Assembly (NCBI GenBank): GCA_052386675.1
Contig: JBQTJX010000004.1
Location: 71,330 to 135,329 of the forward strand
Reading direction: 5' to 3'
DNA from: Betaproteobacteria bacterium
GTDB taxonomy: Bacteria > Pseudomonadota > Gammaproteobacteria > Burkholderiales > SG8-39
DNA length: 64,000 nt
Shown here piece after piece: positions 11,688 through 32,538 of this stretch (the first letter of the stretch is position 1; every line of letters begins with the position of its first letter). The notes beneath the pieces are model-generated. The model had not been told where the DNA came from, made no database searches, and saw only the letters and a list, made by a program, of their open reading frames with translations. The position numbers were made by a program, and so were the translations under genes.

Positions 11688-11733
11688 TCGCGCGACTATA
11701 CCCTCTGCTATGATTTTGCGGCGAAAAGCACCA

Positions 11734-12803
<1,070 letters not shown>

Positions 12804-12813
12804 GCGCAAGCTG

Positions 12814-13668
12814 GTGGCAGCGGCATCCCGTCCGGTCCTCACTGACGCCGCGCGCCCGGCCACCTTCGAGGTCGAGGCGATCAACGAGCGCGGCGAGTCG
12901 GTGCCGACCTCCATCGCGGGCGAACACCCGCTTACCCTGTACCTGGACAAGCGCGAGCTGGTGACGCTGATGACGCTGGGCCACGCGCCCGAGGCGCTGG
13001 TGATCGGCTACCTGCGCAATCAGCGCCTGGTCGATTCCATCGCCGACATCAAGGCGGTGCAGGTGGACTGGGAAACCGATTCGGCCGCGGTCACCACCTC
13101 CGGCAAGGTGAAGGACGTGCTGAAGAAGACCCGCAAGCGCACCGTCACCACCGGCTGCGGCCAGGGCACGGTGTTCGGCGACCTGATGGACGAGATCGAC
13201 AAGCTGAGCCTGCGCGACGACGTGCGCCTCGCCGACAGCCAGCTGTTCGACCTGGTGGAGAAAGTGCGCAAGTACGAAACCATCTACAAGCAGGCGGGCG
13301 CGGTGCACGGCTGCGCCCTCGCCGCGGTCGCGGGACCCGCATCGATCAAGATCCTGATGTTCGTCGAGGATGTCGGCCGCCACAACGCGGTGGATGCCAT
13401 CGCCGGCAGGATGTGGCTGGATGGCATCGATGGCTCGGACAAGATCTTCTACACCACCGGTCGGCTCACCTCGGAGATGGTGATCAAGTGCGCGCAGATG
13501 GGCATTCCGTTCCTGGTCTCGCGCTCGGGCCTGACCCAGATGGGCCACGACATCGCGCGCCGCGTCGGACTCACCATGCTCGGGCGCGCGAGCGGCCGGC
13601 ACTACCTCGCCTTCACCGGCCAGCACCGGCTGCTGCGCACTGCGCCGCAGGCCACCGCGCTGGCCTGA
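12814..13668 (+). CDS. fdhD: Formate dehydrogenase accessory sulfurtransferase FdhD
   Basis: TTGCGQGTVFG, GAVHGCALA, EDVGRHNAVDAI and SRSGLTQMG motifs. No ATG after the moaA stop, so GTG 12814 was chosen and the start is uncertain. Confidence 0.8.
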   Translation: MAAASRPVLTDAARPATFEVEAINERGESVPTSIAGEHPLTLYLDKRELVTLMTLGHAPEALVIGYLRNQRLVDSIADIKAVQVDWETDSAAVTTSGKVKDVLKKTRKRTVTTGCGQGTVFGDLMDEIDKLSLRDDVRLADSQLFDLVEKVRKYETIYKQAGAVHGCALAAVAGPASIKILMFVEDVGRHNAVDAIAGRMWLDGIDGSDKIFYTTGRLTSEMVIKCAQMGIPFLVSRSGLTQMGHDIARRVGLTMLGRASGRHYLAFTGQHRLLRTAPQATALA

Positions 13669-17922: not shown

Positions 17923-19128
17923 TCAGGCGGCCTGCGCTTCGCCTGCGGAGCGCGCCTTCTCGGCCGTCAGCTCGGCGCGCGTCGGGAAGAAGAACGCGGC
18001 CACGAAGATTCCCGAAGCCAGCACCGACAGCACCATGAACACATTGGCGAAACCGCCCTCGGTCTTGTGCAGGGCGGCGATCAGCGGCACCGCGACCGCC
18101 GCCACGCCCAGCGAAACCACGTAGCGCACGCCCAGCACGCGGGCGCGGAACTCGTCGGCGACGTACTTGCCGACGATGGCGTCGTTCAGCGGGATCTGCC
18201 CGAACACCGCCAGCATCATGAGCAGCGCCGCGCCGAGCATCCACCAGCCTTCCAGGTTCGCGGCAAGGAACAGCATCGGGATCTGGACCAGGCCGACCGC
18301 GATCATGAGCCGGCGCATTTCCATGCGGTCGATGAGCGCGCCCATCAGCACCTGCGCAAACGCGGCCATGGTGTAGACAATCGCCACCAGCGCGCCGACG
18401 CCGAAGCTGGTCTGGGTCAGCGACTGCAGGCGCTCGTCGAACACCTTGGGCATGGAGATGGTGGTCGAATTGAAGATGATGCCGCCGCAAGCGGTGGCGA
18501 CCAGCATGATGGCCATGATGCGCGCCAGCATGCGGGTGTCCATGTGCAGGCCGAGCGATTTGGAAGTCTTCTTCACCTTGCCCGGATCCTGGACCAGCAG
18601 CAGGAACGCCACGCCTGCGGCCACGCACAGCACCCCCGGGACGAAGAACGCGGCGCGCCAGCCGAAGCTGTCCACCAGAGCGCCGGTGAGCAAAGCCGCG
18701 AAGGCGAGGCCCATGTTTCCCCAGAGCCCGTTCCAGCCCAGCATCTTGCCCATTTTCTCCGGCGAGACGACCAGCATGGCGATGCCCACCGGGTGGTAGA
18801 TGGCGGCGAAGGCACCCACCGCAGTGAGCCCGAACGCGATCTGCCAGGGCGACTGCGCCAGGCCAGTCGCGAACAGCGCCAGCCCGATCCCGATGAAGAA
18901 CACCACCATCACCTTGTAGCGGCTCCAGTGGTCCGCCAGCCAGCCGGCGGGTATGGCGAAGGCGCCGAAGGCGATGAAGCTGCCCAGCGCGAGCGGCAGC
19001 AGTTCCGAGTACGGGCGTCCCCATTCGCGCCCGATCGCGACCACCGCGGTCGGGAACACGAGCATGGCCAGGTGGTCGAGCAGATGCCCGAGGTTGAGGA
19101 AGGGGACGAGGAAGCGGTTGTTGGGCAT
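17923..19128 (-). CDS. MFS transporter
   Basis: 401 aa, about 12 TM segments. Start at ATG 19128 (MPNNRFLVPFLNLGHLLDH...). Confidence 0.85.
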   Translation of the reverse strand: MPNNRFLVPFLNLGHLLDHLAMLVFPTAVVAIGREWGRPYSELLPLALGSFIAFGAFAIPAGWLADHWSRYKVMVVFFIGIGLALFATGLAQSPWQIAFGLTAVGAFAAIYHPVGIAMLVVSPEKMGKMLGWNGLWGNMGLAFAALLTGALVDSFGWRAAFFVPGVLCVAAGVAFLLLVQDPGKVKKTSKSLGLHMDTRMLARIMAIMLVATACGGIIFNSTTISMPKVFDERLQSLTQTSFGVGALVAIVYTMAAFAQVLMGALIDRMEMRRLMIAVGLVQIPMLFLAANLEGWWMLGAALLMMLAVFGQIPLNDAIVGKYVADEFRARVLGVRYVVSLGVAAVAVPLIAALHKTEGGFANVFMVLSVLASGIFVAAFFFPTRAELTAEKARSAGEAQAA

Positions 19129-19197
19129 AGGTGGATTGTGCCTTTCCCGCTTGCGTCCTTCTTTCGCATGTTGGACAATCATTGTCGAATATAAGAC

Positions 19198-20001
19198 ATG
19201 ACGCCCACGCGCGCGCCCATCCGCAGTACCTCGGCCGTTGACTACCAGAACGTCCCCCGGCCCGTCGCGGCCATGGCACGCGACCTGCCTTCGGACCACG
19301 AGATTGACTGGCACGCGCACCCTCGCTTCCAGGTGATTTACGCCTCCGAGGGCGTGATGACTGTGGATACCCGAGACGAAACCTGGGTCGTGCCGCCAAT
19401 GCGCGCGGTGTGGATGCCGCCCCGCGTACCCCACCGCGTGCGCGCCTCCGGCCACGTGAAGATGCGCACGCTCTACATCCAGCCCGAAGCCGCCACGCGC
19501 ATGCCGGACGCGTGCCACGTCCTCACGGTGACGCCGCTGCTGCGCGAGCTGATCCAGCGCGCGACCGAGGTCCCGGTCCAGTACGACGAGGACGGCGCCG
19601 ACGGGCGTGTCATGCGGCTGGTGCTGGACGAACTGGCGAAGCTCGCCCGCCTGCCGTACAACCTGCCCATGCCCCGCGCCGAGCCCCTTTCCCGGGTCTG
19701 CGCGGAATTGCTCGACCAGCCGGGCGCTGCGCCCACCCGCGAAGCGGTCGCCGCGCGGCACGGCATGAGCGGGCGCACGCTGGAGCGGCATTTCAAGCGC
19801 GACCTCGGCATGAACTTCGGCGATTGGTGCCGGCGCGCGGCGCTGCTGCGGGCGCTGGCGTGGTTCGCCGAAGGCCGGCCGGTCACGGCAGTGGGGCTTG
19901 ACCTCGGCTATTCCAGCCTGTCCGCGTTCTGCGCCATGTTCAAGCGCGAGACCGGGCGCACGCCGCGCGCATACAGAAGCGAACTGCGCCGGGCGGCCTA
20001 G
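19198..20001 (+). CDS. AraC-family transcriptional regulator (cupin N-domain + HTH)
   Basis: HAHPRFQVIYASEGVM cupin-like N-terminus. C-terminal ...GMSGRTLERHFKRDLGMNFGDW...LGYSSLSAFCAMFKRETGRTP HTH_AraC signature. Divergent from the MFS/CoA-transferase genes. Confidence 0.85.
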   Translation: MTPTRAPIRSTSAVDYQNVPRPVAAMARDLPSDHEIDWHAHPRFQVIYASEGVMTVDTRDETWVVPPMRAVWMPPRVPHRVRASGHVKMRTLYIQPEAATRMPDACHVLTVTPLLRELIQRATEVPVQYDEDGADGRVMRLVLDELAKLARLPYNLPMPRAEPLSRVCAELLDQPGAAPTREAVAARHGMSGRTLERHFKRDLGMNFGDWCRRAALLRALAWFAEGRPVTAVGLDLGYSSLSAFCAMFKRETGRTPRAYRSELRRAA

Positions 20002-20120
20002 CCACACACCTTCACCGGTGACGCGCTCAGGGGTATATTCCGACTGCGCTCCGGGAAGCGCTGGCCGCAAACCGGGCGCAGATCTGGAATCAAGAAGCAG
20101 AACAATTTAAGGGGGGATTC

Positions 20121-21047
20121 ATGCTGATTCGTGCAGTTCTCGCGCTCCTGTTCTTCGCCGGCCTGACCATTGGTGGCGCCATCGCCCAGCCCTTCAACGA
20201 GGGCTACCGCAAGTGCGAGAAGTGCCACGAGGCGGAGGTCGACGTCTGGAAGAAAACCAGGCATTTCAAGGGCTTCCAGGAGATCCACAAGAGCGACAAG
20301 GCGAAGAAGATCCTCGCCGCAGCGGGTGGCGCCACCAGCATGCGCGCCAACGCGAACTGCGTGATGTGCCACTTCACCGAAACCAAGGCCTCGGCCGCGG
20401 GCAAGCCCCAGGTGTCCTCCGGGCCGTCCTGCGAAAGCTGCCACGGTCCGTCCTCGGACTGGCGCGACGTCCACAATTTCTACGGCGACGGCATCGACGA
20501 CCCGAAAAAGGAACCGGCGGCGAAGCGCGACAAGCGCCATGCCGATGCCCGCAAGGCCGGGATGATCTGGTCCTTCATGACCTATGACATCGCCGCGAAT
20601 TGCATGGAGTGCCACGGCCTGGCGAATCCGAAGCTGAAGCCGGACGTGCTGGCGAAGATGCTCGATGCGGGACACCCCGGCGAGCCCGAATTCGAGCTGG
20701 TCGCCCATTCCCAGGGCTCGGTCCGCCATCGCTACTACCCGCCGAACGTCACCACCAACGCCGAGATGACCCCGGCAGAGCTGTCCCGCCTTTATGTCAT
20801 CGGCCAGGCTGCCAAGCTGGTGTCGGCAACCGCCGCCGGTGCCGGCGGCAGCGCGCCATTCACCGCGATGCAGAAGAAGCGCGCGCAGGACGCGCGCGCG
20901 GCGCTGCAGCCGGTGGCCGACGTGCCGGAAGTGAAGGCGGTGCTGGACAAGCCCAGCGCGGACGCGGGACGCAAGCTCGCCGAAGCGCTCAAGGGCAAGG
21001 ACCTGTCGGCGAAGGTGAAGCTCCCGGCCAAGAGCAGCTACAAGTAA
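20121..21047 (+). CDS. Secreted tetrahaem cytochrome c
   Basis: Signal peptide MLIRAVLALLFFAGLTIGGAIAQ. Four CxxCH motifs (CEKCH, CVMCH, CESCH, CMECH). GGGGGA SD. Confidence 0.8.
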   Translation: MLIRAVLALLFFAGLTIGGAIAQPFNEGYRKCEKCHEAEVDVWKKTRHFKGFQEIHKSDKAKKILAAAGGATSMRANANCVMCHFTETKASAAGKPQVSSGPSCESCHGPSSDWRDVHNFYGDGIDDPKKEPAAKRDKRHADARKAGMIWSFMTYDIAANCMECHGLANPKLKPDVLAKMLDAGHPGEPEFELVAHSQGSVRHRYYPPNVTTNAEMTPAELSRLYVIGQAAKLVSATAAGAGGSAPFTAMQKKRAQDARAALQPVADVPEVKAVLDKPSADAGRKLAEALKGKDLSAKVKLPAKSSYK

Positions 21048-21071
21048 TCCGGCGGCCGGGCGGGTCGCGGC

Positions 21072-22793
21072 ATGAGCGAGCTCCAGGTCCTGCAGCGCCC
21101 GAAGCGCTGGGATACGCCTTTTGACGGCGCGATGTCCGAGCAGCATGTCGACGAACTGCTCGCGCGCCCCGAGTTCGCGACCATCGACGCCAGCAAGTTC
21201 CCGGCCTCGGCGCCGTTGCGTGGCATCGTGCGCAACGACTGCCGCATCGTGCACTTCCAGCCCGGCGACATCCTGGTGCGCGACGGCGATTACGGCAATT
21301 CCGCGTTCCTTGTCCTCTCCGGCACGGTGCGGGTGGTCCTGCCCCCTGGCCTGCCGCAGCACCTGCTCGGGCGCTCGGTCGAGGCCAAGACTTCCGCGCT
21401 GGACTCCCTCCTGCAGTTGTTCCGCCAGTCGAAGACGCCCGAGACCCGTGACACGTCGCGCTACCACGCCGGCGAGTCGCGCGGGGCCAGCGAGCAGCAC
21501 CATTCGCTGCTCGATCCGGACGGCATCGGCCAGCTGTTCGGTGCCGGCGTCGATCCGCGGGCGGACAAGCGCCGCGTACCCCAGCTCGCGGCAACGTGGA
21601 AGACCGCGATCCTGCCGCCGGGCACGCTGTTCGGGGAAATCGCCGCGCTTGGCAGGGTGCAGCGATCGGCCACCGTGTATGCCGAATCGGAATGCACTGC
21701 GCTCGAGATGCGCTGGCAGGCGTTGCGCGACATCAAGAACCGCGACGAGACCTGGCGCACGAAGATCGAACAGAGCTACCGCGACAACCAGCTGCGCATC
21801 CACCTGGCCGAGCACCCGCTGCTCGCCGGGCTTGACCCGAAGTCGCTGCAAAAACTGGCCGCCGCCACGCTGTTCGAAACCTACGGCTCGTTCGAGTGGT
21901 ACCTGGAATTCAAGCGCGGCAAGGGCAGCGAGCGGCCGGCGCCTCCGATCGAACCCGCGGTCGCGCAGCAGGGCGACTACCCGGATGGCCTGCTGCTGGT
22001 GACCGGCGGCTTTGGCCGCGTCTCCATGCAGCTCGGCCAGGGCTCGCGCACCCTGACCTACCTGCGTAACGGCGATCACTACGGCCTGGACGAGCTGTAC
22101 GAGGCCTGGAAGAGCGGCCACGACTGCCCCTACGAGACCAGCCTGACGGCGCTGGGCTACCTGCACGTGCTCCGGATTCCCTACTCCGCTCTTGCGGAAC
22201 TGGTGTTCCCGAAGCTGCGCCCGCCCGCGGCGCGCCTGATTGACGCCTCGTCGCGGCCGATCGCGCAGGACGCCTTCCTCGAGTGGGCGGTCGAGGAGCG
22301 CTACATCAACGGCACGCGCACCATGGTCATCGACCTCGAGGCCTGCGTGCGCTGCGACGACTGCGTGCGCGCCTGCGCGGACACGCACGGCGGCAATCCG
22401 CGCTTCGTGCGCGCCGGCAACACCTTCGGCAAGTGGCTGGTGGCGAACGCGTGCATGCACTGCGTCGACCCGGTGTGCATGATCGGCTGCCCGACAGGCG
22501 CGATCCACCGCACCGTGCAGGGCGGCGCGGTGGTGATCAATGACCTCACCTGCATCGGCTGCGGCACCTGCGCCAACTCCTGCCCGTACGACAACATCCG
22601 CCTGGTGCCGATCCGCGAGCTGGACGGCCGCGCGCTGCTCGACCCGGCATCCCAGGAGCCGATCCTCAAGGCCACCAAGTGCGACCTGTGCTTCTCCCTG
22701 CCCACCGGCCCTTCATGCGAGCGTGCCTGCCCGCACGGGGCGCTGCGCCGCGCCGACCTTCAGTCGCTGGTGGCGCAGGCGGCGGAGCTCTAG
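21072..22793 (+). CDS. Tandem cyclic-nucleotide-binding domains fused to an NrfC/HybA-like four-cluster Fe-S domain
   Basis: cNMP phosphate-binding-cassette-like FGEIAALGRVQRSATVYA, then a second degenerate cNMP domain. This is followed by CVRCDDCVRAC, CMHCVDPVCMIGCP, CIGCGTCANSCP and CDLC...CERACP. Confidence 0.8.
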   Translation: MSELQVLQRPKRWDTPFDGAMSEQHVDELLARPEFATIDASKFPASAPLRGIVRNDCRIVHFQPGDILVRDGDYGNSAFLVLSGTVRVVLPPGLPQHLLGRSVEAKTSALDSLLQLFRQSKTPETRDTSRYHAGESRGASEQHHSLLDPDGIGQLFGAGVDPRADKRRVPQLAATWKTAILPPGTLFGEIAALGRVQRSATVYAESECTALEMRWQALRDIKNRDETWRTKIEQSYRDNQLRIHLAEHPLLAGLDPKSLQKLAAATLFETYGSFEWYLEFKRGKGSERPAPPIEPAVAQQGDYPDGLLLVTGGFGRVSMQLGQGSRTLTYLRNGDHYGLDELYEAWKSGHDCPYETSLTALGYLHVLRIPYSALAELVFPKLRPPAARLIDASSRPIAQDAFLEWAVEERYINGTRTMVIDLEACVRCDDCVRACADTHGGNPRFVRAGNTFGKWLVANACMHCVDPVCMIGCPTGAIHRTVQGGAVVINDLTCIGCGTCANSCPYDNIRLVPIRELDGRALLDPASQEPILKATKCDLCFSLPTGPSCERACPHGALRRADLQSLVAQAAEL

Positions 22794-22800
22794 GCCCGGC

Positions 22801-23673
22801 ATGCGCGAGACGCTTCGGCTGGCGTCGGAACTGTGGCGCGACGCCCTTGCCTACGCGCCGGCGCGCCCGGCCCGCGGCCTGTTGACGGCGTGGTTCGCGG
22901 CGATCGCGGCCTGGATCCTGGTCAGCCTCCTTGCCTGGCACACCGAGCGCAGCCTGGGCAACGCCTCGCTGGTGACCGGCTATGCACTGATGGCGGCGAT
23001 GCTGTTCCTGGGCAGCTTCGGCCTGCGCAAGCGCGTCCTGGTGCTGCCGCTGGGCACGGCGCGCGCCTGGATGCGGGCGCACCTGGTCGTCAGTGCGATT
23101 TGCGTGCCGCTGTACTTCCAGCACGCCGGCAGCCTCTGGCCGGGCGGCGTCTACGAGCAGGCGCTCGCCCTGGCGTTCTACGGCGTGGCGCTCACCGGGC
23201 TCGCGGGCTACGTCCTCGAGCGCCTGCTGCCCAAGCGTCTCACCGACCTCGACAGCGAGATCGTCTACGAGCGCATTCCGCACGAGATCGCCGAGCTGCG
23301 CGAGCGCGCCGAGGCGGTGGTGGTACAGGCGATGCAGCAACTGGGTTCGGACACGCTGGGCCGCTACTACCACGAGTCGCTGGACTGGTATTTCTGGAAG
23401 CCGCGTTTCCTGGTCAGCCACCTGCTGGGCGGCCGGCGCGCAGCGCGCTGGATCGGTGGCCACATCTCCGCACTCGCCCGCTACCTCAGCGAGCCGGAGC
23501 GCGCCTACCTCGACCAGATCGAGGCGCTGGCAACACGCAAAAGCCACCTGGACGCCCACTTGGTCATGCAGGGCGCGCTGAAGTACTGGCTGTTCCTGCA
23601 CGTCCCGCTGGCCGCTGTCCTGATCCTGCTGGTGCTCTGGCACCTGCTCCTGGTGAACATCTACGCACTGTGA
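22801..23673 (+). CDS. Integral membrane protein (4 N-terminal TM, helical soluble region, C-terminal TM), unknown function
   Basis: 290 aa. Hydrophobic segments carry His residues (AWHTE, RAHLVVSA, YFQH, FLHVP, LWHLL). 7 nt after the preceding gene. Confidence 0.55.
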   Translation: MRETLRLASELWRDALAYAPARPARGLLTAWFAAIAAWILVSLLAWHTERSLGNASLVTGYALMAAMLFLGSFGLRKRVLVLPLGTARAWMRAHLVVSAICVPLYFQHAGSLWPGGVYEQALALAFYGVALTGLAGYVLERLLPKRLTDLDSEIVYERIPHEIAELRERAEAVVVQAMQQLGSDTLGRYYHESLDWYFWKPRFLVSHLLGGRRAARWIGGHISALARYLSEPERAYLDQIEALATRKSHLDAHLVMQGALKYWLFLHVPLAAVLILLVLWHLLLVNIYAL

Positions 23674-23697
23674 CGCCATGCCGAACCTGAGAGACGC

Positions 23698-25527
23698 ATG
23701 AAGGGACCGCGCAGCTTCCGCCACGAGACCATTGCGTACGAGCGGCCGATGCTGCCGTACCGCTGCGGCCGCGGCGCGATGTGGCGCAAGCCGTGCTGGC
23801 AGGGTCCCGACGCCGGCGGCGGCTGCCAGGGGCGCTTCGAGTGCGCGCCGGTGCGCATCGGGGACCGCTGGGAATGCCGCCGGCCCAAGCTTGCCGGCGG
23901 CAAGTGCGACCGCGGGCCGCTGCCCGACGGCAGCTGCGCGCACAGCCATCCGCCATGCGTGCCGCGCCGCAGCCTGCGCTCGCTGCGCGGCCACTTTTCC
24001 GCGCTGCTGGCGATCGCGCTGGGCATTGTCCTGCTTGTCGGCCTGGATCCCACCGCGCCCTCGATGGTCAACCCCCGCGCGATCGACGCCGGCGAGCTCA
24101 CCAGCGTGCACGGCGGATTCACGCGCGAGCGCGGCTGCGCGGCCTGCCACGCGAGCCACGAGAAGGACGCGCTCGGCTGGGTCGCGGCCGCGTTCCGCGG
24201 CAACGATCCCAGCGCCCGTTGCCTGGACTGCCACGATTTCCCGGGCAGCGCGATGCGCGCGCACAATGCCGCTCCGGACAAGGGCGCGGCGTTCGGCGAA
24301 GTGCCCTGCGCGCGCTGCCACACCGAGCACAAGGGCGCGGCGGCGAAGATCGCCCAGGTTCCCGACTTCGTCTGCGCCAACTGCCACCAGAAGCGGTTCG
24401 ACAGCTTCTCCTCCGGGCACACGCCCTTCCCGGCCAACTATCCGTTCGACCGTCCCGGGGCGATCCACTTCGACCACAGCCGCCACATCGGCAAGTACTT
24501 CGGCGACCCGAAGGTCGCGCGCACCTCCAAGGCCGCGGCGGCGTTCGCCGCGGATGCGCAGAAGAAATGCACTGCCTGCCACAGCGTCGAAGGCGCGACG
24601 CGCGAGGTGAAGCCCAAGCCCTATTCCGAGATCTGCGCCACCTGCCATGAGGGCCAGGTCGGCAAGGCCGAGTTCGTGGTGCTTGAACAGGAGCGCCTGA
24701 CACCGGCTGCGTCCTTCCTGCTGGGCATGGAACTGGAGGGCGACGAGGAGGCCGCCACGCGCCGCCTGGGCAAGCTCTGGGAGGCGATGGCGCGCGGCGG
24801 CACGGAGGCGCTGGTGGAACTGGCCGCCGGCGGCGGCGATGCAACCCGGCGCAAGTCCTCCGAAGCGCTGTTCGCCGGCCTGGCCGGCCAGACCGCGCGC
24901 GAGACCGGGGCGGCCTGGGCCGCGCGCCGCGACCTGCCGGATCGTGGCGCAAAGGACGGGGTCGCTGGCTGGATCGCAGGCAACACCTCGGACGACAAAC
25001 CGGCGCTTCATTACCGCGCCGCCCACGGCGACCCGGTGCTGAAGGCCTGGATCGAGGCCCTGCGGACAGCCGCGGCGGAGGGCAAGGACAAGGACCGGCA
25101 GCAGATCGCCGCAGCCGCGCTCGACCAGGTACTCGATCCGGATGGCCCGGGCGCCTGCGGCAAGTGCCACGGCGCCTCGGTGAGGCTGGCCAAGCCCGGG
25201 GGACTGGAGGCGGCCTGGAAACGCGCCGGCAAGGCGGCCTCGCCCCATGACCGCTACTCCCACGCCCCGCACCTTGCGCTTGTGGACCCGGATGCCGGCT
25301 GCCGTGCGTGCCACGAGCTGAACCCGAGCTCGGGCTACGCGAAATACTTCGCATCCAAGGCGCCCAAACCCGAGGCCTACCAGAGCAACTTCCTTGGGAT
25401 TCGCGCCGAAGCTTGCGTAGAATGCCATCGTGAAGGACAGGTGAATGCTGGCTGCCAGGTCTGCCATGCCTATCACCTGCCGCATCGCTTCAATCTCGGT
25501 TTCCGAACAAGGGGAGCAAGCAAATGA
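23698..25527 (+). CDS. Membrane-anchored decahaem cytochrome c with N-terminal Cys-rich region
   Basis: Ten CxxCH motifs (CAACH, CLDCH, CARCH, CANCH, CTACH, CATCH, CGKCH, CRACH, CVECH, CQVCH). One TM helix (ALLAIALGIVLLVGL) preceded by about 95 aa containing 8 Cys. Confidence 0.8.
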   Translation: MKGPRSFRHETIAYERPMLPYRCGRGAMWRKPCWQGPDAGGGCQGRFECAPVRIGDRWECRRPKLAGGKCDRGPLPDGSCAHSHPPCVPRRSLRSLRGHFSALLAIALGIVLLVGLDPTAPSMVNPRAIDAGELTSVHGGFTRERGCAACHASHEKDALGWVAAAFRGNDPSARCLDCHDFPGSAMRAHNAAPDKGAAFGEVPCARCHTEHKGAAAKIAQVPDFVCANCHQKRFDSFSSGHTPFPANYPFDRPGAIHFDHSRHIGKYFGDPKVARTSKAAAAFAADAQKKCTACHSVEGATREVKPKPYSEICATCHEGQVGKAEFVVLEQERLTPAASFLLGMELEGDEEAATRRLGKLWEAMARGGTEALVELAAGGGDATRRKSSEALFAGLAGQTARETGAAWAARRDLPDRGAKDGVAGWIAGNTSDDKPALHYRAAHGDPVLKAWIEALRTAAAEGKDKDRQQIAAAALDQVLDPDGPGACGKCHGASVRLAKPGGLEAAWKRAGKAASPHDRYSHAPHLALVDPDAGCRACHELNPSSGYAKYFASKAPKPEAYQSNFLGIRAEACVECHREGQVNAGCQVCHAYHLPHRFNLGFRTRGASK

Positions 25528-27359
25528 CCGAGGAGTTCAGCCAGCAGCGGGACATGGTCCGCAACCCGTCGCGCAGGCGCCGCTGGACGGCCCTCGCGGC
25601 GATCCTGGTGGCCTGCGTGCTGTCGGCGCCGGGCGAGTCCGGCGCGCAGCGCAAGCCCCGCGGCGCGGCACCGGCGGAGGCCCCTGCCGCAGCCCCGGCC
25701 GGCGAAGCGCACGCCCGGGTCCTGAATGAAGAGCAGTACCCCAGCGCCGCGCGCTGCGGCGAGTGCCACAAGCAGATCTACGACGAATGGCGGGTCTCCA
25801 ACCACGCCTACGCCGGAATGTCGCCGATGTTCCACAAGTTCGAGCAGAAGATCACCGAGCTCGCGCCCTCGATCGGCACGTTCTGCGTGCGCTGCCACAT
25901 GGGCGTGGGCACCACGCAGGGCGAATCGCGCGACCTGCCGCTGTGGAAGCGCAGCCAGGTGTCGCGCGAAGGCGTGACCTGCATCAGCTGCCATCGCGTC
26001 CAGGACGAGTACGCCAAGGCGAACGGCGAGCGCCGCATCGTCCCGGGCTCCATCTTCGCGCCGGTCTACGGGCCGGGCGGCGGCGAGGGTGTCGCCGAGG
26101 CGGTGAAAAATCCGGGCCGCTTCAATATCGCCACCAACGACAAGGCGCGGGGCACGAAGATCCACACCGCCGGGGTCAAGTTCGAGCAGATCGACAAGGC
26201 CGAGTTCTGCGTCTCCTGCCACCAGGTCGCGGTGAACCTGGGCATCAAGCTGGAGGTGGTCTGGGACCAGTACCGTTCGTCTCCCGCGCGCAAGCAGGGC
26301 ATCACCTGCCAGGACTGCCACATGGGCAAGGTTCCCGGCAAGGCGGAGGGCTACGCCACCGGTCCCGCAGCCGACGGCATGCGCAACGGCCGCACGCTCA
26401 ATCCGACGCGCAAGCGCAGCAACCATTCGTTCTACGGGCCCGGCTACCCGATCACCCACCCCGGCATCTTCCCGCACCACAATACCGAGGGCACCGAGGA
26501 GTGGACGATCGAGCGCTGGCTCAAGTTCGACTACCGCGCGAAGTGGGGCAGCGACGACTTTGAGCAGGAAGTCGAGTCCGGCAAGCGCAAGCTGCGCTTC
26601 CCCGAGGAATGGGCCGACGCCGAGGACCGCAAGAAAGCCTGGTCGGTGGTGGAGGAGAACCTGCGCCTGCTGGAGGTCAAGCGCGAACAGCGCAAGCAGG
26701 TGATGGAGAATGGCTCGCGCATCGACGGCCCGTTCTTCACCGAGGCGCGCGCCGGCCGGCCGCTCAGCTTTGCCTACCGGGTGACCAACACCGATCCCGG
26801 CCACAACCTGCCCTCGGGGTCCCTGGGCGCGCAGCCCGAGATCTGGCTCAACGTGGCGCTGATCGGCCCCGACGGCAAGCGGCTCTGGGAGAGCGGCCAC
26901 CTCGACAGCATCGGTGACATGGCCGACCTGCATTCGACCGACGTGCGCGCCGGCAAGCTACCGCTCGACCGGCAGCTGTTCAACCTGCAGACCAAGTTCC
27001 TCACCACCAACGTGAAGGGCACCGACCGCGAGATGTACCTGCCGGTCAACTTCGACATCGACCAGTTGCCGTTCCTGCGGCCACCCGGCCAGCCGGTGTC
27101 GGTCATGAACCACCCGCCCTTCGTGCGCATGGAATCGCGCTCGCTGCCGCCGCTGGGCAGCCGCATGGCGAATTACACCGTGCCGGCCGAACTGGTCGCG
27201 AAGCCCGGCAAGTACCGCCTCGCGGTGCGCCTGCGCAGCCGCGCCGAGCCGATCTACTTCATGCGCTTCGTCGGCGCCACCAGCGACATGGAGCGCGCGA
27301 TGAACGAATGGATGCTCGACATCCATCCGTACACGGTCGAATTCCAGGTGAAGGAGTGA
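25524..27359 (+). CDS. Pentahaem cytochrome c with ~340-aa haem-free C-terminal domain
   Basis: ATGA overlap with the upstream gene. Arg-rich signal or anchor (SRRRRWTALAAILVACVLSA). CGECH, CVRCH, CISCH, CVSCH and CQDCH all lie in the first ~290 aa. Confidence 0.8.
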   Translation: MTEEFSQQRDMVRNPSRRRRWTALAAILVACVLSAPGESGAQRKPRGAAPAEAPAAAPAGEAHARVLNEEQYPSAARCGECHKQIYDEWRVSNHAYAGMSPMFHKFEQKITELAPSIGTFCVRCHMGVGTTQGESRDLPLWKRSQVSREGVTCISCHRVQDEYAKANGERRIVPGSIFAPVYGPGGGEGVAEAVKNPGRFNIATNDKARGTKIHTAGVKFEQIDKAEFCVSCHQVAVNLGIKLEVVWDQYRSSPARKQGITCQDCHMGKVPGKAEGYATGPAADGMRNGRTLNPTRKRSNHSFYGPGYPITHPGIFPHHNTEGTEEWTIERWLKFDYRAKWGSDDFEQEVESGKRKLRFPEEWADAEDRKKAWSVVEENLRLLEVKREQRKQVMENGSRIDGPFFTEARAGRPLSFAYRVTNTDPGHNLPSGSLGAQPEIWLNVALIGPDGKRLWESGHLDSIGDMADLHSTDVRAGKLPLDRQLFNLQTKFLTTNVKGTDREMYLPVNFDIDQLPFLRPPGQPVSVMNHPPFVRMESRSLPPLGSRMANYTVPAELVAKPGKYRLAVRLRSRAEPIYFMRFVGATSDMERAMNEWMLDIHPYTVEFQVKE

Positions 27360-27364: not shown

Positions 27365-28879
27365 ATGTCTGCGACCGGAGTTCACAGGAAGGCGCGCCTC
27401 CTTGCGACGCTCGCCCTTGCGCTGGCGGCCATCCCGGCGCCGGCGCTCGCCGACGACAAGGGCGGCCCCCGGCAGATGGCCCCGGACGCAGTCGTGGTGC
27501 CGCACAAGGCGGAGACCTTCGGCCCCGACCCGTCCTACGAGCAAAAGCCCTACAGCGTCGAGGACCAGTTGCGCATCTATGGCGGCAAGTCCGCGGTGCG
27601 CAACCCTCGCCCGCTGATCGAGTTGGGCCGGCCGATCTACGACAGCGGTCCGCTGAGCGCGCCGGGCACCGGCCTGGGCCGCAAGAACCCCACCGACCAC
27701 GCGTTCTCGATTTACGGCGACTGGCGCACCGCCATCGCCCGCAACAACAATGGTGCCGTCCGCCAGAGCGTGCTCGCCACCCGGCTCAACCTGGACGTGG
27801 ACTGGAAGATCACGGGCACCGAGCGCGTGCATGCCTTCTTCCGCCCGCTGGACCACGACGGCAGGTTCACCGGCTGCGTGCGCGAGAACGGCGGCGGCCA
27901 CTGCGAGAACCGGCTCGACGTGAAGGCCGAGGCGCTGTTCTTCGAGGGCGACCTGGGCGCGCTGATGTCCGGCTGGACCGACCGCTACCAGTCCTTCGAC
28001 CTGCCCTTCACGTTCGGCAAGATCCCGCTGCTGTTCCAGAACGGCGTCTGGCTGGAGGACGCCTTCGGCGGCTTTGCGTTCACCATCCCGGCGCGCAACA
28101 GCCCGTTGCTCGACATCTCGAACATGGACGTCACGTTCTTCGCCGGCGTCGACAACGTCGACACCCCCGGCATCGTCGACCGTGCCGGGCTCGCGACCAA
28201 GGCAAACCGCCTGTTCGGCGCCACCGCGTTCATCGAAGCCAACGAGGGCTACTGGGAACTCGGCCTGGCGCGCGTCAAGCCCAAGGACGACTTCGCCAAC
28301 CAGGGCTACAACAACGCGGCGATCGCGTTCACCCGGCGCTACGGCGGCTGGCTGTCGAATTCCGTGCGCCTGATCCACAACTTCGGCCAGCGCCCCGTTG
28401 CCGGCGTGCGCCGCAACGCGAACGGCTCGCTGCTGCTCATCGAGAATTCGCTGGTGACCCACAAGCCGCTGACGCTGGTGCCCTACCTGAACCTGTTCTA
28501 CGGCAACGACCGCCCGCAGTCCGTGGCGCGCGCCGTGGACGCCGGCGGCATCCTGAAGAACACCGGCATCAACTTCGAGACCGACGGCCTGACCGGATTC
28601 CCCAAGCTGAACGACACCGCCAACAACACCTACGGCGGCGCGCTCGGCATCCAGTACCTGTTCGACCTTAGCCAGCAGGTCGTGGCCGAGATCGCGATGG
28701 TGCGTCCGCACGGGGACGCCGCCAACCGCGGCGTCCCGGGCCGCGAACTCGCGCTCGGACTGCGCTACCAGCTCAACCTTGACCGGGCGTGGATCTTCCG
28801 CGCCGACGCCATCATCGCTGACCGCGACGGCGCGCGCGACCTGAGCGGCGTGAGGTTCGAACTGCGGCGCAAGTTCTAG
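27365..28879 (+). CDS. Putative outer-membrane beta-barrel (porin-like) protein
   Basis: Signal peptide ...LALAAIPAPALADD. 504 aa, rich in alternating aromatic/Gly segments. C-terminal ...GVRFELRRKF ends in Phe, as is typical of OMPs. Confidence 0.55.
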   Translation: MSATGVHRKARLLATLALALAAIPAPALADDKGGPRQMAPDAVVVPHKAETFGPDPSYEQKPYSVEDQLRIYGGKSAVRNPRPLIELGRPIYDSGPLSAPGTGLGRKNPTDHAFSIYGDWRTAIARNNNGAVRQSVLATRLNLDVDWKITGTERVHAFFRPLDHDGRFTGCVRENGGGHCENRLDVKAEALFFEGDLGALMSGWTDRYQSFDLPFTFGKIPLLFQNGVWLEDAFGGFAFTIPARNSPLLDISNMDVTFFAGVDNVDTPGIVDRAGLATKANRLFGATAFIEANEGYWELGLARVKPKDDFANQGYNNAAIAFTRRYGGWLSNSVRLIHNFGQRPVAGVRRNANGSLLLIENSLVTHKPLTLVPYLNLFYGNDRPQSVARAVDAGGILKNTGINFETDGLTGFPKLNDTANNTYGGALGIQYLFDLSQQVVAEIAMVRPHGDAANRGVPGRELALGLRYQLNLDRAWIFRADAIIADRDGARDLSGVRFELRRKF

Positions 28880-28888: not shown

Positions 28889-30148
28889 ATGGCCATCCTG
28901 GTCCACTCCATCGCCCTGGCCGCCGCCGCGCTCGGCGCGGCGTACCTCGCCCTGCTCGCGTACGGCGCCTTCATGCGCCAGGCGCGGCTCGCGGAACTGC
29001 ACCAGGACGAGCGCGCGGTGTTCGTGGAGCGATTGCATCAGGTCAGCGCGCCAGTCTCCCGGCTCGCGAGCCAGCAGGGTCCGGCCTGGTCCGGGTTCCG
29101 GAAATTCCGCATCGACGGCAAGGTGCTCGAGGCCGACAGCATCTGCTCCTTCTATCTGGTGCCGCACGACGGCCGGCCGCTGCCGCCGTTCTATCCGGGC
29201 CAGTACCTCACCTTCCGGGTGCCGATTCCAGGCCAGACCCGCGAAGTCACGCGCTGCTACTCGCTGTCCGACAGTCCCGACCACACCGACTACTACCGCG
29301 TGACGATCAAGCGCATCCCGCCGCCGCCGTCGCAACCCGAGGCGCCGGGCGGACTGGTATCCGGGCACTTCCACGAGCGGCTGCGGGTCGGCGACTTCCT
29401 GGACGTGAAGGCGCCAAGCGGCCACTTCCACCTCGACGTCGAACACCGCGGTCCGGTGGTGCTGATCGGCGGCGGCATCGGCATCACTCCGGTCCTCAGC
29501 ATGCTCGGGCACCTCGCCGCGACCCAGGCCGGCCGCGAAGCATGGCTGTTCTACGGCGTGCGCAACAGCAGCGAGCATGTGATGCAGGATTTGCTCAAGG
29601 AGATCGCCGCCGCGCACCGCAACCTGCACGTGGTGGTGTGCTACTCCGATCCCTTGCCGGGGGACCGCCAGGGCGAGCACTACGACGTCGCCGAGCGGGT
29701 CGGCGTGGACCTGTTCAAGCGCATGCTGAAGGTGAACAACTTCGACTTCTACATCTGCGGTCCGCCGCCGATGATGCAGTCGATCACCGAAGGGCTGGCC
29801 GCATGGGGCGTGCCCGAGGCGCGCGTGCATTTCGAGGCTTTCGGGCCGGCATCGGTCAAGAAGGGCGCGCAGGCGGCGGCACCTTCCGTGGCGGCCGGCC
29901 TGCAGGTGACCTTCACGCGCTCCAATCGCACCCTGGTGTGGCCGGGGGCGGGCTCGCTGCTGGAGTTCGCGGAAGCCAACGGCATCCAGATTGACTCCGG
30001 CTGCCGTGCGGGGAACTGCGGCACCTGCGTCACCGCCATCCGCGAAGGCCAGGTGGACTACCTCAGCCCCCCTGGCGCCGAGATCGAGAAGGGTTCCTGC
30101 CTCGCCTGCATCGCGACGCCCAAGAGCGCGCTGAGCGTGGACGCCTAG
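28889..30148 (+). CDS. Membrane-anchored ferredoxin-NAD(P)+ reductase-like flavoprotein with C-terminal plant-type 2Fe-2S domain
   Basis: N-terminal TM helix. RCYSLS FAD motif, LIGGGIGITP NAD(P) motif, and CRAGNCGTCVT...C 2Fe-2S motif. Confidence 0.85.
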   Translation: MAILVHSIALAAAALGAAYLALLAYGAFMRQARLAELHQDERAVFVERLHQVSAPVSRLASQQGPAWSGFRKFRIDGKVLEADSICSFYLVPHDGRPLPPFYPGQYLTFRVPIPGQTREVTRCYSLSDSPDHTDYYRVTIKRIPPPPSQPEAPGGLVSGHFHERLRVGDFLDVKAPSGHFHLDVEHRGPVVLIGGGIGITPVLSMLGHLAATQAGREAWLFYGVRNSSEHVMQDLLKEIAAAHRNLHVVVCYSDPLPGDRQGEHYDVAERVGVDLFKRMLKVNNFDFYICGPPPMMQSITEGLAAWGVPEARVHFEAFGPASVKKGAQAAAPSVAAGLQVTFTRSNRTLVWPGAGSLLEFAEANGIQIDSGCRAGNCGTCVTAIREGQVDYLSPPGAEIEKGSCLACIATPKSALSVDA

Positions 30149-30155: not shown

Positions 30156-31208
30156 ATGGCCAGACTGAGCAACGCGCAGGGACTGCTGTTCGTCGAGATC
30201 TTCCAGGAGGAGATCGCCGCGGACGGCCCCGCCGTGACGACCCTGAAGGACTGGTTCGGCCACCAGCAGGTCGGGCAGGCAAAGGCAATGATCAGCGACG
30301 CAGTCAGCGCGAACAGGGGCGTGGTCACCCATACCGTGGGAGACGCGACTCTCAGCAGCTTCCCGGATGCACGCCACGCGGTCGCCGCTGCGATCGCGAT
30401 CCGCAACAAGCTTTTCCGTACCCGAAAGGCCTCGTCGACCGCCATCGTGCGGATGCGCGCCGGAATCTCCTACGGCGCGGTCCGCGTGATCGCCGGCAAG
30501 GTCTCCGGTGACGCGGTCACCGCGGCCGGCCTGCTCATGGAGAAGGCCGGCCCGGATGAGGTGCTTGCCGACCAGGCGCTTGCCGATGCGGCGTCCGGCG
30601 CGGAAGCGATCACCTTCGAGTCGCGCGGCGCAATCGACGGCATCCAGGCGCTCTGCGTCGTCGGCGGGGATGCGGCGCCGAAGACCGCGCCCACGATTCC
30701 AGGGGCGCTGCCCGCGACCCCGGCCGCGCTGGCGCGCGCGCCCGCCCCGCCTCCGCCTGCTGCACCTGCTGCACCTGCTGCACCTGCTGCACCTGCTGCG
30801 CCTGCCGCTCCCGCGGCGGCCGTCGCGCCCGCCGCACCTGCCGCATCCGATGCCCCTGGCGCGAAAATGACCAAAGCGGTCGTGATCATCGTGGGTGGCG
30901 CGGAGCTTCGATTCGATCCCGCGGTCGGCACCGTGTCCATCGGCCGCGGCCCGGAGAACCACATCAACGTGCCCTTGCGCCATGTGTCGCGCAAGCACGC
31001 GAGGATATTCTGGCCGGGCGGCGGCATGCCGTTCATCGCCAACCTGAGCCCGAACGGCACCTGCATGCGCCCTGCGGGCTCGAACACAGAAACACGCTTC
31101 ACCGACCAGGTGCCCCTGCTCGCCAGCGGCGATCTCGCGCTTTGCGGTTCCTTCGGCCAGGTGTCGACGCCGGACGAGATCATCCGTTTCAGTCTTGTCG
31201 ATCCCTAG
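30156..31208 (+). CDS. Class III cyclase-homology domain (probably degenerate) - Pro/Ala repeat linker - FHA domain protein
   Basis: LLFVEIF / TVGDATLSSF / RAGISYGAV...GDAVTAAG resembles a CHD with substituted catalytic positions. The C-terminal SIGRGPENHINVPLRHVSRKHARIFW...NLSPNGT is FHA-like. Confidence 0.65.
   Translation: MARLSNAQGLLFVEIFQEEIAADGPAVTTLKDWFGHQQVGQAKAMISDAVSANRGVVTHTVGDATLSSFPDARHAVAAAIAIRNKLFRTRKASSTAIVRMRAGISYGAVRVIAGKVSGDAVTAAGLLMEKAGPDEVLADQALADAASGAEAITFESRGAIDGIQALCVVGGDAAPKTAPTIPGALPATPAALARAPAPPPPAAPAAPAAPAAPAAPAAPAAAVAPAAPAASDAPGAKMTKAVVIIVGGAELRFDPAVGTVSIGRGPENHINVPLRHVSRKHARIFWPGGGMPFIANLSPNGTCMRPAGSNTETRFTDQVPLLASGDLALCGSFGQVSTPDEIIRFSLVDP
30756..30809 (+). repeat. 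9-bp in-frame tandem repeat (CCTGCTGCA)x4 perfect + 2 degenerate, encoding (PAA)n
   Basis: Units at 30756, 30765, 30774 and 30783 are identical. Units at 30792 and 30801 diverge by 1 and 3 nt. Confidence 0.9.
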
Positions 31209-31848
31209 CGGCAGCGGACAGCCAGCGGGGCTCGATGCGCGCGGGCTCGCCTGCGAGCGCGGCGAGCGGCGCCTGTTTTCGGATCTCTCGCTTGCGCTCG
31301 AGCCGGGTGGCCTGGCGCGCCTGCTTGGACCCAACGGCAGCGGCAAGACGAGCCTGCTGCGCATCCTCGCCGGCCTGACCCGCCCTGCCGAGGGCGAAGT
31401 GCGCTGGCGCGGCGAGCGCATCGGCGAACTCTCGGAGGCGTACGGCCATGAGCTTGCCTATGTCGGCCACTCGCCTGCGCTCAAGGACGAACTGACCGTG
31501 GCCGAGAACCTCGCATTCGCGGCGCACCTGGCGGGCCTGGCGACCAGCGGCGCGCAGCTCGAGGCCGCGCTCGAGCGCTTCGGCATGGCTTCGCGTGCCG
31601 CACTTCCCGCGCGCGTGCTCTCGCAGGGGCAGAAGCGCCGCGCCGCGCTGGCGCGCCTGGCGCTGGCCGGCGCGCCGGTACTGTGGCTGCTGGATGAGCC
31701 ATTCGTGGCGCTGGACAAGGAAGGCATCGCCTGCGTACGCGAACTGGCCGAGGCGCACCTCGCGCGTGGCGGCATGCTGGTGCTGACCTCGCACCAGGAG
31801 GTGCCCATAGCCGCGCGCGCAACGCAGACGGTGGTCCTGGGCGCATGA
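31195..31848 (+). CDS. ccmA: Haem exporter ATP-binding protein CcmA
   Basis: LDARGLACERGERRLF...GPNGSGKTSLLRILAGL aligns with E. coli CcmA. TTG start; no ATG or GTG is available. Confidence 0.9.
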   Translation: MSIPSGSGQPAGLDARGLACERGERRLFSDLSLALEPGGLARLLGPNGSGKTSLLRILAGLTRPAEGEVRWRGERIGELSEAYGHELAYVGHSPALKDELTVAENLAFAAHLAGLATSGAQLEAALERFGMASRAALPARVLSQGQKRRAALARLALAGAPVLWLLDEPFVALDKEGIACVRELAEAHLARGGMLVLTSHQEVPIAARATQTVVLGA

Positions 31849-31855
31849 GCCGCGC

Positions 31856-32524
31856 ATGAGCGCTGCCTTCGCCGCCGTCCTGCGCCGCGACCTGCTGGTC
31901 GCGCTGCGCCGCAGGGGCGATGCGCTCAACGTCCTCATCTTCTTCGTCATCGTCGCGAGCCTGTTTCCCCTGGGCACCGGCGCCGAACCCGGCCAGCTGC
32001 GCGCCATGGCCGCGGGCGTGATCTGGGTGGGGGCGCTGCTCGCGGCGCTGCTGTCGCTGCCGCGCCTGTTCGCGGCCGATCTCGCCGACGGCACCCTGGA
32101 GCAGATGCTGGTCTCCGCGCAGCCGCTGCCGGCGGTGGTGATGGGGAAAGTCGCCGCCCACTGGCTGACCACGGGGCTGCCGCTGGCGCTCATCGCCCCG
32201 GTACTCGGGCTGCAGTACGGGTTGCCCGGCGACGCCCAGCTGGTGCTCCTCGTGGCGGTCCTGCTCGGCACGCCGGTGCTGAGCCTCATCGGCGCGGCGG
32301 GCGCCGCCCTGACGCTGGGGGTGCGCGGCGCCGGCGTGCTCACCGGCCTGCTGGTGCTGCCGTTGTTCGTCCCGGCCCTCGTGTTCGGCGCCGGCGCGGT
32401 CACCGCCTCGCTGTCGGGCCTCGCGCCGGGTGCGCATCTTTCGCTGCTTGGCGCGCTACTTGCGGTATCCTTTTTATTCGGCCTCTGGGCAGCCTGCGCG
32501 GCGCTACGCGTCGCCCTCGATTGA
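31856..32524 (+). CDS. ccmB: Haem exporter permease CcmB
   Basis: 222-aa six-TM protein in the canonical ccm position. Confidence 0.9.
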   Translation: MSAAFAAVLRRDLLVALRRRGDALNVLIFFVIVASLFPLGTGAEPGQLRAMAAGVIWVGALLAALLSLPRLFAADLADGTLEQMLVSAQPLPAVVMGKVAAHWLTTGLPLALIAPVLGLQYGLPGDAQLVLLVAVLLGTPVLSLIGAAGAALTLGVRGAGVLTGLLVLPLFVPALVFGAGAVTASLSGLAPGAHLSLLGALLAVSFLFGLWAACAALRVALD

Positions 32525-32538
32525 GTTTCTCTTCCGCG

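Follow-up and report, generated by a model that had tools for sequence, protein, structure and literature searches.

The window analysed here, a 64,000-nucleotide stretch of a betaproteobacterial contig, carries on its forward strand (positions 21,072 to 22,793) a gene whose product joins two cyclic-nucleotide-binding (CNB) domains to a ferredoxin domain, and which we identify by its domains and gene context as ptdE, the gene for the cytoplasmic Fe-S subunit of the seven-gene Ptd porin-cytochrome system. The reading that we favor, to which we give about an even chance, is that Ptd conducts electrons from NAD(P)H through PtdC, PtdE and PtdF to c-type hemes and a porin, and that this route is gated at PtdE by CNB-A, the first of its CNB domains, together with FHA signalling. 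The fusion of the two domain types is real but neither rare nor newly found, and the window protein is a betaproteobacterial, freshwater-type representative of Ptd. Beyond the preprint in which the operon was named (bioRxiv 10.1101/2023.11.21.568154), the present analysis adds the count of four clusters, the statistics of CNB-A and of its loss, the histidines of PtdF, natural gene fusions, links to FHA domains, a cysteine-rich domain in PtdG and further habitats.

Conservation in PtdE is counted throughout over 81 sequences from many phyla (at least eight), and statements on its fold refer to an AlphaFold2 (AF2) model made with 72 homologues, which has a predicted local distance difference test score (pLDDT) of 80.9 and a predicted template modeling score (pTM) of 0.73. 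The gene, with lengths in amino acids (aa), is divided as follows.

21072..22793, + strand: ptdE, an uninterrupted open reading frame (ORF) for a tandem CNB plus four-cluster ferredoxin protein, predicted to be cytoplasmic, 573 aa
21129..21812, + strand: CNB-A domain, residues ~20-247, including the phosphate-binding cassette (PBC); AF2 beta-barrel with alphaB/alphaC helices, and Foldseek
21339..21602, + strand: insertion of ~88 residues (90-177) in the beta4-beta5 loop of CNB-A; low pLDDT in the blocks covering 101-150, and conservation
21630..21683, + strand: PBC of CNB-A, FGEIAALGRVQRSATVYA, residues 187-204; canonical, from conservation in the 81 sequences
21819..22301, + strand: CNB-B domain, residues ~250-410, with a degenerate PBC; fold confident (pLDDT ~90)
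22311..22769, + strand: four-cluster [4Fe-4S] ferredoxin domain, residues 414-566; 16 Cys in four groups

In the window, which has a GC content of 68%, numerous long spurious ORFs overlap ptdE, and one of these, an 836-aa ORF on the minus strand (19998-22508), was rejected as a high-GC artefact. The plus-strand frame is backed by a GC content at third codon positions (GC3) of 0.91, homology picks the same frame, and the start codon is consistent with those of homologues, which start 1-8 residues ahead of a conserved RPxRWDxPF. This N-terminal motif (residues 9-17; 21096-21122, + strand) is near-invariant and does not constitute a Tat signal; a role in docking is one possibility. Pfam recognizes cNMP_binding in three stretches (E 2.2e-23) and the dicluster families Fer4_7 (4e-11) and Fer4_11 (1e-9). 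The PtdE sequence contains no hydrophobic segment, no RR or twin-arginine motif and no Sec or Tat signal, and in some organisms the protein is fused to the cytoplasmic N-terminus of PtdF. Thus, PtdE is predicted to be a cytoplasmic protein, in agreement with the original prediction, which had been made from the sequence of the window and had placed the protein on the cytoplasmic side.

The ptdABCDEFG operon was described in Alphaproteobacteria of marine oxygen-deficient zones and comprises a pentaheme cytochrome with a beta-sandwich (PtdA), the porin PtdB, an FAD/NAD(P) oxidoreductase (PtdC), a tetraheme cytochrome (PtdD), a cyclic nucleotide (cNMP)-binding 4Fe-4S protein (PtdE), a membrane protein (PtdF) and a decaheme cytochrome (PtdG) (bioRxiv 10.1101/2023.11.21.568154). 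The identity of the window operon rests on these descriptions and on Table S7 of the same preprint. The window set agrees in its cNMP plus 4Fe-4S polypeptide, the adjoining PtdF, the cytochromes with five, four and ten hemes and the FAD/NAD(P)H reductase; the domain composition of PtdE and the seven-gene set, with a putative porin as PtdB, are the same, as are the phyla represented among the homologues, and some metagenome-assembled genomes (MAGs) that contain homologues share their taxon and sampling site with entries of Table S7 (e.g., MBT5131324). There are also differences. The window genes stand in the rotated order D-E-F-G-A-B-C and are followed by an eighth gene, which encodes a cyclase-like/FHA protein; the host is a high-GC betaproteobacterium with relatives from groundwater, biofilters and freshwater; and the preprint gives PtdE two 4Fe-4S clusters, whereas the window sequence has ligands for four. 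The 20 ptd carriers in Table S7 were all obtained from saline habitats, with no betaproteobacterium among them, and include cultured organisms such as Roseibium aggregatum and Tistlia consotensis (bioRxiv 10.1101/2023.11.21.568154). Since the kin of the window locus are Burkholderiales and Nitrosomonadales, with matches of a freshwater type, the window extends the range of ptd beyond the saline habitats of the preprint.

A search of the literature for other names of the CNB/4Fe-4S fusion turned up only the ptd preprint and a second one on Ferrigenium straubiae, in which a core of a [4Fe-4S] protein, a five-transmembrane protein and a membrane-anchored nonaheme cytochrome is described (bioRxiv 10.64898/2026.01.22.701106, section 6.3.2). 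This core resembles PtdE/F/G in its three-part arrangement, the lack of signal peptides and an FHA domain on the cytoplasmic side; it differs in having nine hemes, in carrying the FHA domain on the cytochrome and in that a CNB domain is unmentioned, and the two are likened here by description only. A preprint on extracellular electron transfer in peat proved to be unrelated to ptd.

The 16 ligand cysteines of PtdE fall into four groups, C425-x2-C-x2-C-x3-C, C461-x2-C-x4-C-x3-CP, C494-x2-C-x2-C-x3-CP and C537-x2-C-x8-C-x3-CP, and each is 98-100% conserved, whereas the remaining three cysteines of the protein are not. Four [4Fe-4S] clusters are therefore predicted. The nearest sequences in the PDB are HycB3 (7qv7_A, E 1.2e-16) and HycB4 of the filament of hydrogen-dependent CO2 reductase (HDCR) and HycB of formate hydrogenlyase (FHL; 7z0s_B), and the alignment to HycB3 spans all four groups. 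By contrast, the NCBIfam equivalogs DmsB, HydN, HybA and NrfC score far below their cut-offs, the best being DmsB with 56.6 bits against 214.1. The C-terminal part of PtdE is accordingly assigned, by its sequence, to the four-cluster ferredoxins of the DmsB/NrfC/HybA/HycB superfamily. The wires of the HycB/HydN type in the HDCR of T. kivui (7qv7) and the FHL of E. coli (7z0s) share with it the spacing of the cysteine groups, including KCDLC...GP.C...CP, the cytoplasmic location without a Tat signal and the role of an inter-module electron wire. They differ in that PtdE has a tandem CNB module of ~410 residues fused N-terminally and that neither a hydrogenase, nor a Mo/W-bis(pyranopterin guanine dinucleotide) (bisPGD) partner, nor an NrfD/DmsC-type anchor is encoded near ptdE. 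The operon partners of PtdE are instead Sec/Ccm-dependent cytochromes, PtdF, which has no NrfD match, and an FNR-type reductase. A periplasmic subunit of the NrfC/HybA/DmsB kind was ruled out by the lack of a Tat signal, by the sub-threshold equivalog scores and by the absence of a catalytic (Mo/W-bisPGD, hydrogenase or NrfA) or NrfD/DmsC-type neighbor. Thus, the comparison drawn in the original prediction with NrfC/HybA/DmsB-type subunits holds for the four-cluster superfamily and not for the closest kinship, as the nearest solved relatives are the cytoplasmic HycB3, HycB4 and HycB rather than the periplasmic NrfC and HybA.

The best Foldseek matches of the PtdE model are the tandem CNB-A/B modules of protein kinase G (PKG) and of the regulatory subunits of protein kinase A (PKA-R), with E ~5e-15. 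PtdE has in common with them two successive CNB folds and a CNB-A cassette of the form FGE..A.....R[TS]A[TS]V.A; it is only 12-16% identical to them, lacks the phosphate-binding Arg in CNB-B, has the 88-residue insertion in the beta4-beta5 loop of CNB-A and has an Fe-S output rather than a kinase or an inhibitor sequence. Transcription factors of the CRP/FNR family likewise use a CNB-fold sensor, and proteins of the PtdE type bear the Joint Genome Institute (JGI) label "CRP-like cAMP-binding protein"; however, PtdE has no helix-turn-helix (HTH), its CNB domains form a tandem, and its clusters lie in a separate ferredoxin domain and not in an N-terminal cluster of the FNR type. No HTH family was found in PtdE at E<=1 with Pfam, and a function as a transcription factor was ruled out because the CNB module is followed by the ferredoxin domain and not by a C-terminal HTH.

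In a CNB domain, the PBC Arg contacts the cyclic phosphate and the Glu contacts the ribose 2'-OH. Both are kept in CNB-A of PtdE, where the cassette is conserved at F187 (76), G188 (81), E189 (79), R195 (81), R198 (80) and T/S201 (81 of the 81 sequences). In a functional-site test for Gly-Glu followed by Arg-[ST]-A-[ST], CNB-A passes with F187 G188 E189 ... R198 S199 A200 T201, and CNB-B fails. The degeneracy of CNB-B is also seen at the Arg-equivalent position 355, which is Q in 37, E in 17 and R in 14 sequences, and in the cassette G338-L-x-E341, whose loop is lengthened to 12-13 residues. The claims of a canonical cassette in the N-terminal region and of a degenerate second cNMP domain were therefore both borne out, and the concern that ligand-binding residues might be missing on proper alignment applies to the Arg position of CNB-B and not to CNB-A, which keeps its Gly-Glu and Arg. 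Among divergent full-length representatives of the family, the Gly-Glu/Arg triad of CNB-A is retained in 94 of 127 (74%), an alignment-based count used in place of a strict regular expression that gave a misleading 54/126. In the other 33 (~26%) it is lost, by replacement of Glu with V/L/I/M or of Arg with H and others. Judging from these residues, the CNB-A site is intact in the window protein and its close relatives but is not universal in the family.

This distribution bears on whether the CNB domains of PtdE might be purely structural, docking or scaffold modules inherited from a sensor ancestor, so that PtdE would still be the wire of Ptd and would be under no nucleotide control. CNB-B is clearly degenerate, the Glu or Arg of CNB-A is absent from the 33 representatives just mentioned, the cyclase-like domain encoded in the operon is catalytically degenerate, and the 64-kb window yielded no active cyclase, all of which would fit such modules. 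On the other hand, the contact residues of CNB-A are near-invariant (79-81 of 81) over at least eight phyla, a conservation that is explained only by contact with a ribose-phosphate, and the triad persists in 74% of the clusters formed at 50% identity. We thus consider a purely structural module unlikely and prefer CNB-A as a regulatory site. The allosteric control by cAMP or cGMP put forward in the original prediction is plausible, but less so for the family at large, given the loss of the triad in ~26% of its divergent representatives.

The fusion of CNB and 4Fe-4S domains is widespread. An exhaustive profile search, run against 1.84 billion cluster representatives, recovered it in 933 clusters at 50% identity (E<=1e-30). 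When a single genome was scanned for each species, the fusion was confirmed in 371 species of at least eight phyla, and the best 120 database matches (53-93% identity) all contain both domain types; JGI annotates such matches as [quoted passage not shown]. The rarity implied by the original prediction is thus contradicted, and the architecture is common and already bears the name PtdE, but no function has been assigned to it. From the species scan, 80 loci were kept for counts of synteny, and the Beta-, Gamma- and Alphaproteobacteria, Omnitrophota, Verrucomicrobiota, Planctomycetota, Nitrospinota, Acidobacteriota and Kiritimatiellae are among their taxa. ptdF follows ptdE in 78 of these loci, and the contigs of the other two stop too early. 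ptdD was found in 71, ptdG in 70 and ptdC in 64; the counts for ptdA (47) and ptdB (44) are limited by the length of the flanks. Hwanghaeella grinnelliae and Planctomycetales ZRK34 are among the ptd loci retrieved, and the nearest relatives of the window locus are MAGs of Burkholderiales and Nitrosomonadales. In sequencing runs, DNA near-identical to window positions 20100-24100 (0.32-0.96 of the sampled words) was seen in three runs without an organism label, and weaker matches (0.10-0.14) were seen in groundwater, biofilter, drinking-water, freshwater, lake and river metagenomes. RNA runs share merely 5-8% of words with ptdE and were not used as evidence of expression.

In several homologues, PtdE is joined to other parts of the system. 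In P0247, P0272 and P0243, PtdF is attached at the C-terminus (aligned with E 7.6e-35, 2.1e-33 and 4.1e-41, respectively), and P0383 is a PtdC-PtdE fusion of the order Fer2-FAD-NAD-CNB-Fer4. These two kinds of fusion imply that PtdE is interposed, on the cytoplasmic side, between reductase and membrane protein. FHA domains are also built into PtdE: by Pfam, two lie at the N-terminus of P0248, one lies within the insertion loop of CNB-A in P0245, and P0283 and P0343 have one between the CNB domains, as does P0316, in which it was judged from the sequence and a split PtdE alignment and not by Pfam. An N-terminal extension of ~350 aa in P0297, P0302, P0303, P0330 and P0331 has no Pfam match.

The ptd genes of the window are all on the same strand, with intergenic gaps of -4 to 24 nucleotides, and the elements around ptdE are listed below, with transmembrane helices abbreviated as TM.

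20011..20039, + strand: weak sigma-70-like promoter candidate upstream of ptdD; consensus scan 9/12, located past the AraC stop (20001) and ahead of the ptdD start (20121)
20121..21047, + strand: ptdD, predicted tetraheme periplasmic cytochrome c, 308 aa; 4 CxxCH, signal-like N-terminal helix with a hydrophobic segment at 1-25, Pfam Cytochrome_C554 (E 1.2e-13)
22801..23673, + strand: ptdF, inner-membrane protein with five predicted TM and a helical domain on the cytoplasmic side, a predicted dihaem cytochrome b, 290 aa; invariant His
23698..25527, + strand: ptdG, predicted membrane-anchored decaheme cytochrome c, 609 aa; 10 CxxCH, TM 95-124, Pfam multiheme families
23698..23979, + strand: 8-Cys cytoplasmic N-domain of PtdG, residues 1-94, with a YERP motif; conserved across phyla in nearly all PtdG orthologues
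25524..27359, + strand: ptdA, predicted pentaheme cytochrome c plus C-terminal non-heme domain, 611 aa; 5 CxxCH, Pfam, 4-nucleotide overlap with the ptdG stop
27365..28879, + strand: ptdB, putative outer-membrane porin, 504 aa; signal-like N-terminus, C-terminal ...RRKF
28889..30148, + strand: ptdC, predicted membrane-anchored FNR-type FAD/NAD(P)H reductase plus C-terminal plant-type [2Fe-2S], 419 aa; Pfam FAD_binding_6, NAD_binding_1 and Fer2
30156..31208, + strand: eighth gene, degenerate class III cyclase-homology domain, Pro/Ala linker and FHA, 350 aa; 7 nucleotides past ptdC, FHA E 7.4e-8

PtdF, whose gene begins 7 nucleotides past the ptdE stop, has the histidine pairs H94/H108 and H267/H281 on two TM helices, each pair spaced i/i+14 and invariant in 55 of 55 sequences, which suggests that the protein binds two stacked bis-His b hemes. 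The AF2 model of PtdF has a pLDDT of 88.7, and weak Pfam matches occur among 47 homologues, of which 12 match DUF4405 (best E 2.2e-4), two match Ni_hydr_CYTB (E 1.9e-6) and two match Ferric_reduct (E 0.033). PtdC matches the reductase domain of the flavohemoglobin Hmp in NCBIfam (E 2.1e-74) and has the motifs RxYS and GGGIGITP; its N-terminal TM (1-29) is followed by basic residues, which implies a cytoplasmic location of the catalytic domain. The 8-Cys N-domain of PtdG has no Pfam match and is absent from the account given in the ptd preprint; it may, from its cysteines, bind Zn or an Fe-S cluster. Likewise, neither Pfam nor NCBIfam has a match to the putative porin PtdB, whose ORF is open from 27308; the start at the M of 27365 is backed by the 504-aa call in the 93%-identical locus L082.

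A feasible model may be that PtdC oxidizes NAD(P)H via its FAD and [2Fe-2S] cluster and passes the electrons to the four-cluster wire of PtdE, which would dock on the cytoplasmic face of PtdF. The bis-His b hemes of PtdF (inner, H94/H267; outer, H108/H281) would carry the electrons over the inner membrane to the c hemes of PtdD (four), PtdG (ten) and PtdA (five), and on to the outer-membrane porin PtdB. Such a route would be independent of the quinone pool and akin to a split-subunit NADPH oxidase or ferric reductase. With the NOX, FRE and STEAP proteins it would share the path from NAD(P)H through a flavin and two stacked bis-His b hemes to the outside, with His 13-14 apart on two TM helices, and PtdC also matches NAD_binding_6, the "ferric reductase NAD binding domain". 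It differs from them in that the parts are on separate subunits, with a [2Fe-2S] and four [4Fe-4S] clusters between the flavin and the hemes, and in that PtdF has five TM helices and not six, no fold match in the PDB, and Ferric_reduct only marginally, in 2 of its 47 homologues.

In outward electron movement, the membrane potential assists and is dissipated. Export by Ptd would thus cost both reducing power and membrane potential, and for this reason a gated flow is expected. A cyclic nucleotide at the intact PBC of CNB-A would alter the docking or alignment of PtdE with its partners, with CNB-B as a non-binding structural relay, and a second input might come from phospho-threonine/FHA signalling through the FHA protein of the operon, as FHA domains are fused into PtdE elsewhere. 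It is also tempting to speculate, more tentatively, that Ptd is a quinone-independent exporter with 19 c hemes, switched at its Fe-S subunit by a nucleotide in CNB-A and by FHA, and that it is the first respiratory or extracellular conduit gated post-translationally by second messengers; this stronger version is doubtful.

The opposite direction of flow also has to be weighed, in which an extracellular or periplasmic donor, such as Fe(II), hydroxylamine or NO-related species or a reduced mineral, would feed PtdF, PtdE and then PtdC, ending at NAD(P)+ or a cytoplasmic acceptor. The habitats and relatives of the window locus are compatible with this, as its close kin occur in groundwater, biofilter and drinking-water metagenomes and among MAGs of Nitrosomonadales/Burkholderiales and Nitrospinota. 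Moreover, a possible role of ptd in nitrogen cycling has been raised (bioRxiv 10.1101/2023.11.21.568154), and the similar core of the Fe(II) oxidizer F. straubiae has been discussed as a candidate for electron uptake (bioRxiv 10.64898/2026.01.22.701106). However, the movement of electrons from the positive to the negative side opposes the membrane potential, reduction of NAD(P)+ by donors at the level of Fe(II) is strongly uphill, and the operon contains no ion-translocating or bifurcating module. Reductases that combine FNR and 2Fe-2S modules (NqrF, PaaE and MmoC), in addition, are normally entry points at which NAD(P)H is oxidized. Inward flow is accordingly regarded as quite improbable, and export from NAD(P)H is retained as the preferred direction.

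Several observations count against a gated export route. The authors of the ptd preprint state that the function of ptd "remains completely unknown" (bioRxiv 10.1101/2023.11.21.568154), and the electron-transfer model has only predicted functions to draw on, for every Ptd protein; we infer the direction of the electrons, their donor and their acceptor alike. The b hemes of PtdF are read from the histidine pattern by itself, the window protein having no Pfam match and nothing significant in a Foldseek search against the PDB or in a profile search against PDB sequences. The fusions are gene calls from metagenomes, among which mis-joined ORFs are possible; the PtdE-PtdF fusion was seen in three independent cases. 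Furthermore, because about a quarter of the divergent representatives lack the Glu or Arg of CNB-A, the core function of the family cannot depend on the binding of a nucleotide, and, as noted, no active cyclase was seen in the window.

As to the source and nature of the ligand, residues 40-157 of the eighth gene product match the cyclase Ma1120 (E 9e-6), with the catalytic Asn, Arg and Lys and the first metal-binding Asp replaced; the first metal-binding acidic residue is not conserved. This gene is unlikely to be the source of a cNMP because of these replacements and probably encodes a pseudo-cyclase. A cyclase-like/FHA gene also follows ptdC in L001, L002, L004, L005, L009, L024 and L082, and the FHA gene is syntenic in all betaproteobacterial loci that are long enough and in some gammaproteobacterial ones. 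CNB-A may, alternatively, be regulated by something other than cAMP or cGMP, for example a 2',3'-cNMP, a different small metabolite or, as in kinetoplastid PKA-R, a nucleoside. The Foldseek matches include the cAMP-independent, nucleoside-binding PKA-R of Trypanosoma, the R[TS]A[TS] motif is not selective among nucleotides, and the conserved insertion beside the base-binding side, in which G100, R101, E124 and R126 are invariant although its length varies among homologues, could reshape the specificity. Nevertheless, the kinetoplastid nucleoside binders have replaced the PBC Arg (the titles of mutants under 6h4g point this way), whereas PtdE retains both Arg and Glu, and we give such a ligand only a slim chance against a cyclic nucleotide. 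It is very improbable that PtdE is mainly a redox or second-messenger sensor of the state of Ptd and not an obligatory conduit, since, although it joins two sensor-type modules in a family in which FHA signalling domains recur, it has no output domain (HTH, kinase or GGDEF), the presence of four clusters whose ligands are all conserved is typical of a wire and not of a sensor, and its fusions to the reductase and to the membrane cytochrome position it in series with both, as the link from one to the other.

Ptd is a transcribed gene cluster of large size and broad phylogenetic spread, and its habitats range from the oxygen-deficient zones of the sea to groundwater and the biofilters of drinking-water treatment. 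If the gated model is true, Ptd would provide a new, quinone-pool-free route for cytoplasmic reducing power over both membranes and a rare bacterial case of a cyclic nucleotide that acts directly on an electron-transfer protein and not via a transcription factor, and the gated conduit would be present in hundreds of species of at least eight phyla. The four predicted clusters, the intact CNB-A, the four histidines of PtdF, the fusions that fix the order of the subunits and the recurrent links to FHA are handles on such a system.

A scan for terminator-like sites on the + strand found none through 32000; the sites that it returned are confined to the minus strand and no more frequent than expected by chance. 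Genes for cytochrome c maturation (CcmB, CcmE and CcmF; 31811-35888, + strand) lie directly downstream of ptd, which fits the 19 c hemes, and in L082 the FHA gene is followed by genes for a CcmA-like ABC protein, CcmB and CcmC, in this order. On the other side, just upstream of ptdD, a minus-strand MFS transporter gene is divergent from that of an AraC/cupin regulator (19198-20001, + strand), the two spanning 17923-20001, an arrangement shared by L082, L083 and L001; either ptd or the transporter may be under the control of the AraC protein.

Elsewhere in the window, in which no tRNA gene was found, the region 2657-13668 holds a formate-dehydrogenase-like set on the minus strand, in which the molybdopterin subunit is encoded at 4655-7888, a canonical four-cluster beta subunit at 3983-4654 and a cytochrome b561 at 2657-3961. 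Near it lie genes for a polyferredoxin of 777 aa (8652-10985, minus strand) and for FdhD (12562-13668, + strand), with SodC and a chromate transporter upstream. The GC content dips to 0.57 at 50001-52000, compared with ~0.68 elsewhere. At 53284-56208 (+ strand), ~24 kb from ptd, a gene for a MoxR-type AAA ATPase is followed by one for a Ser/Thr kinase with a Cache-like sensor, and this kinase could supply phospho-threonine marks for FHA domains.

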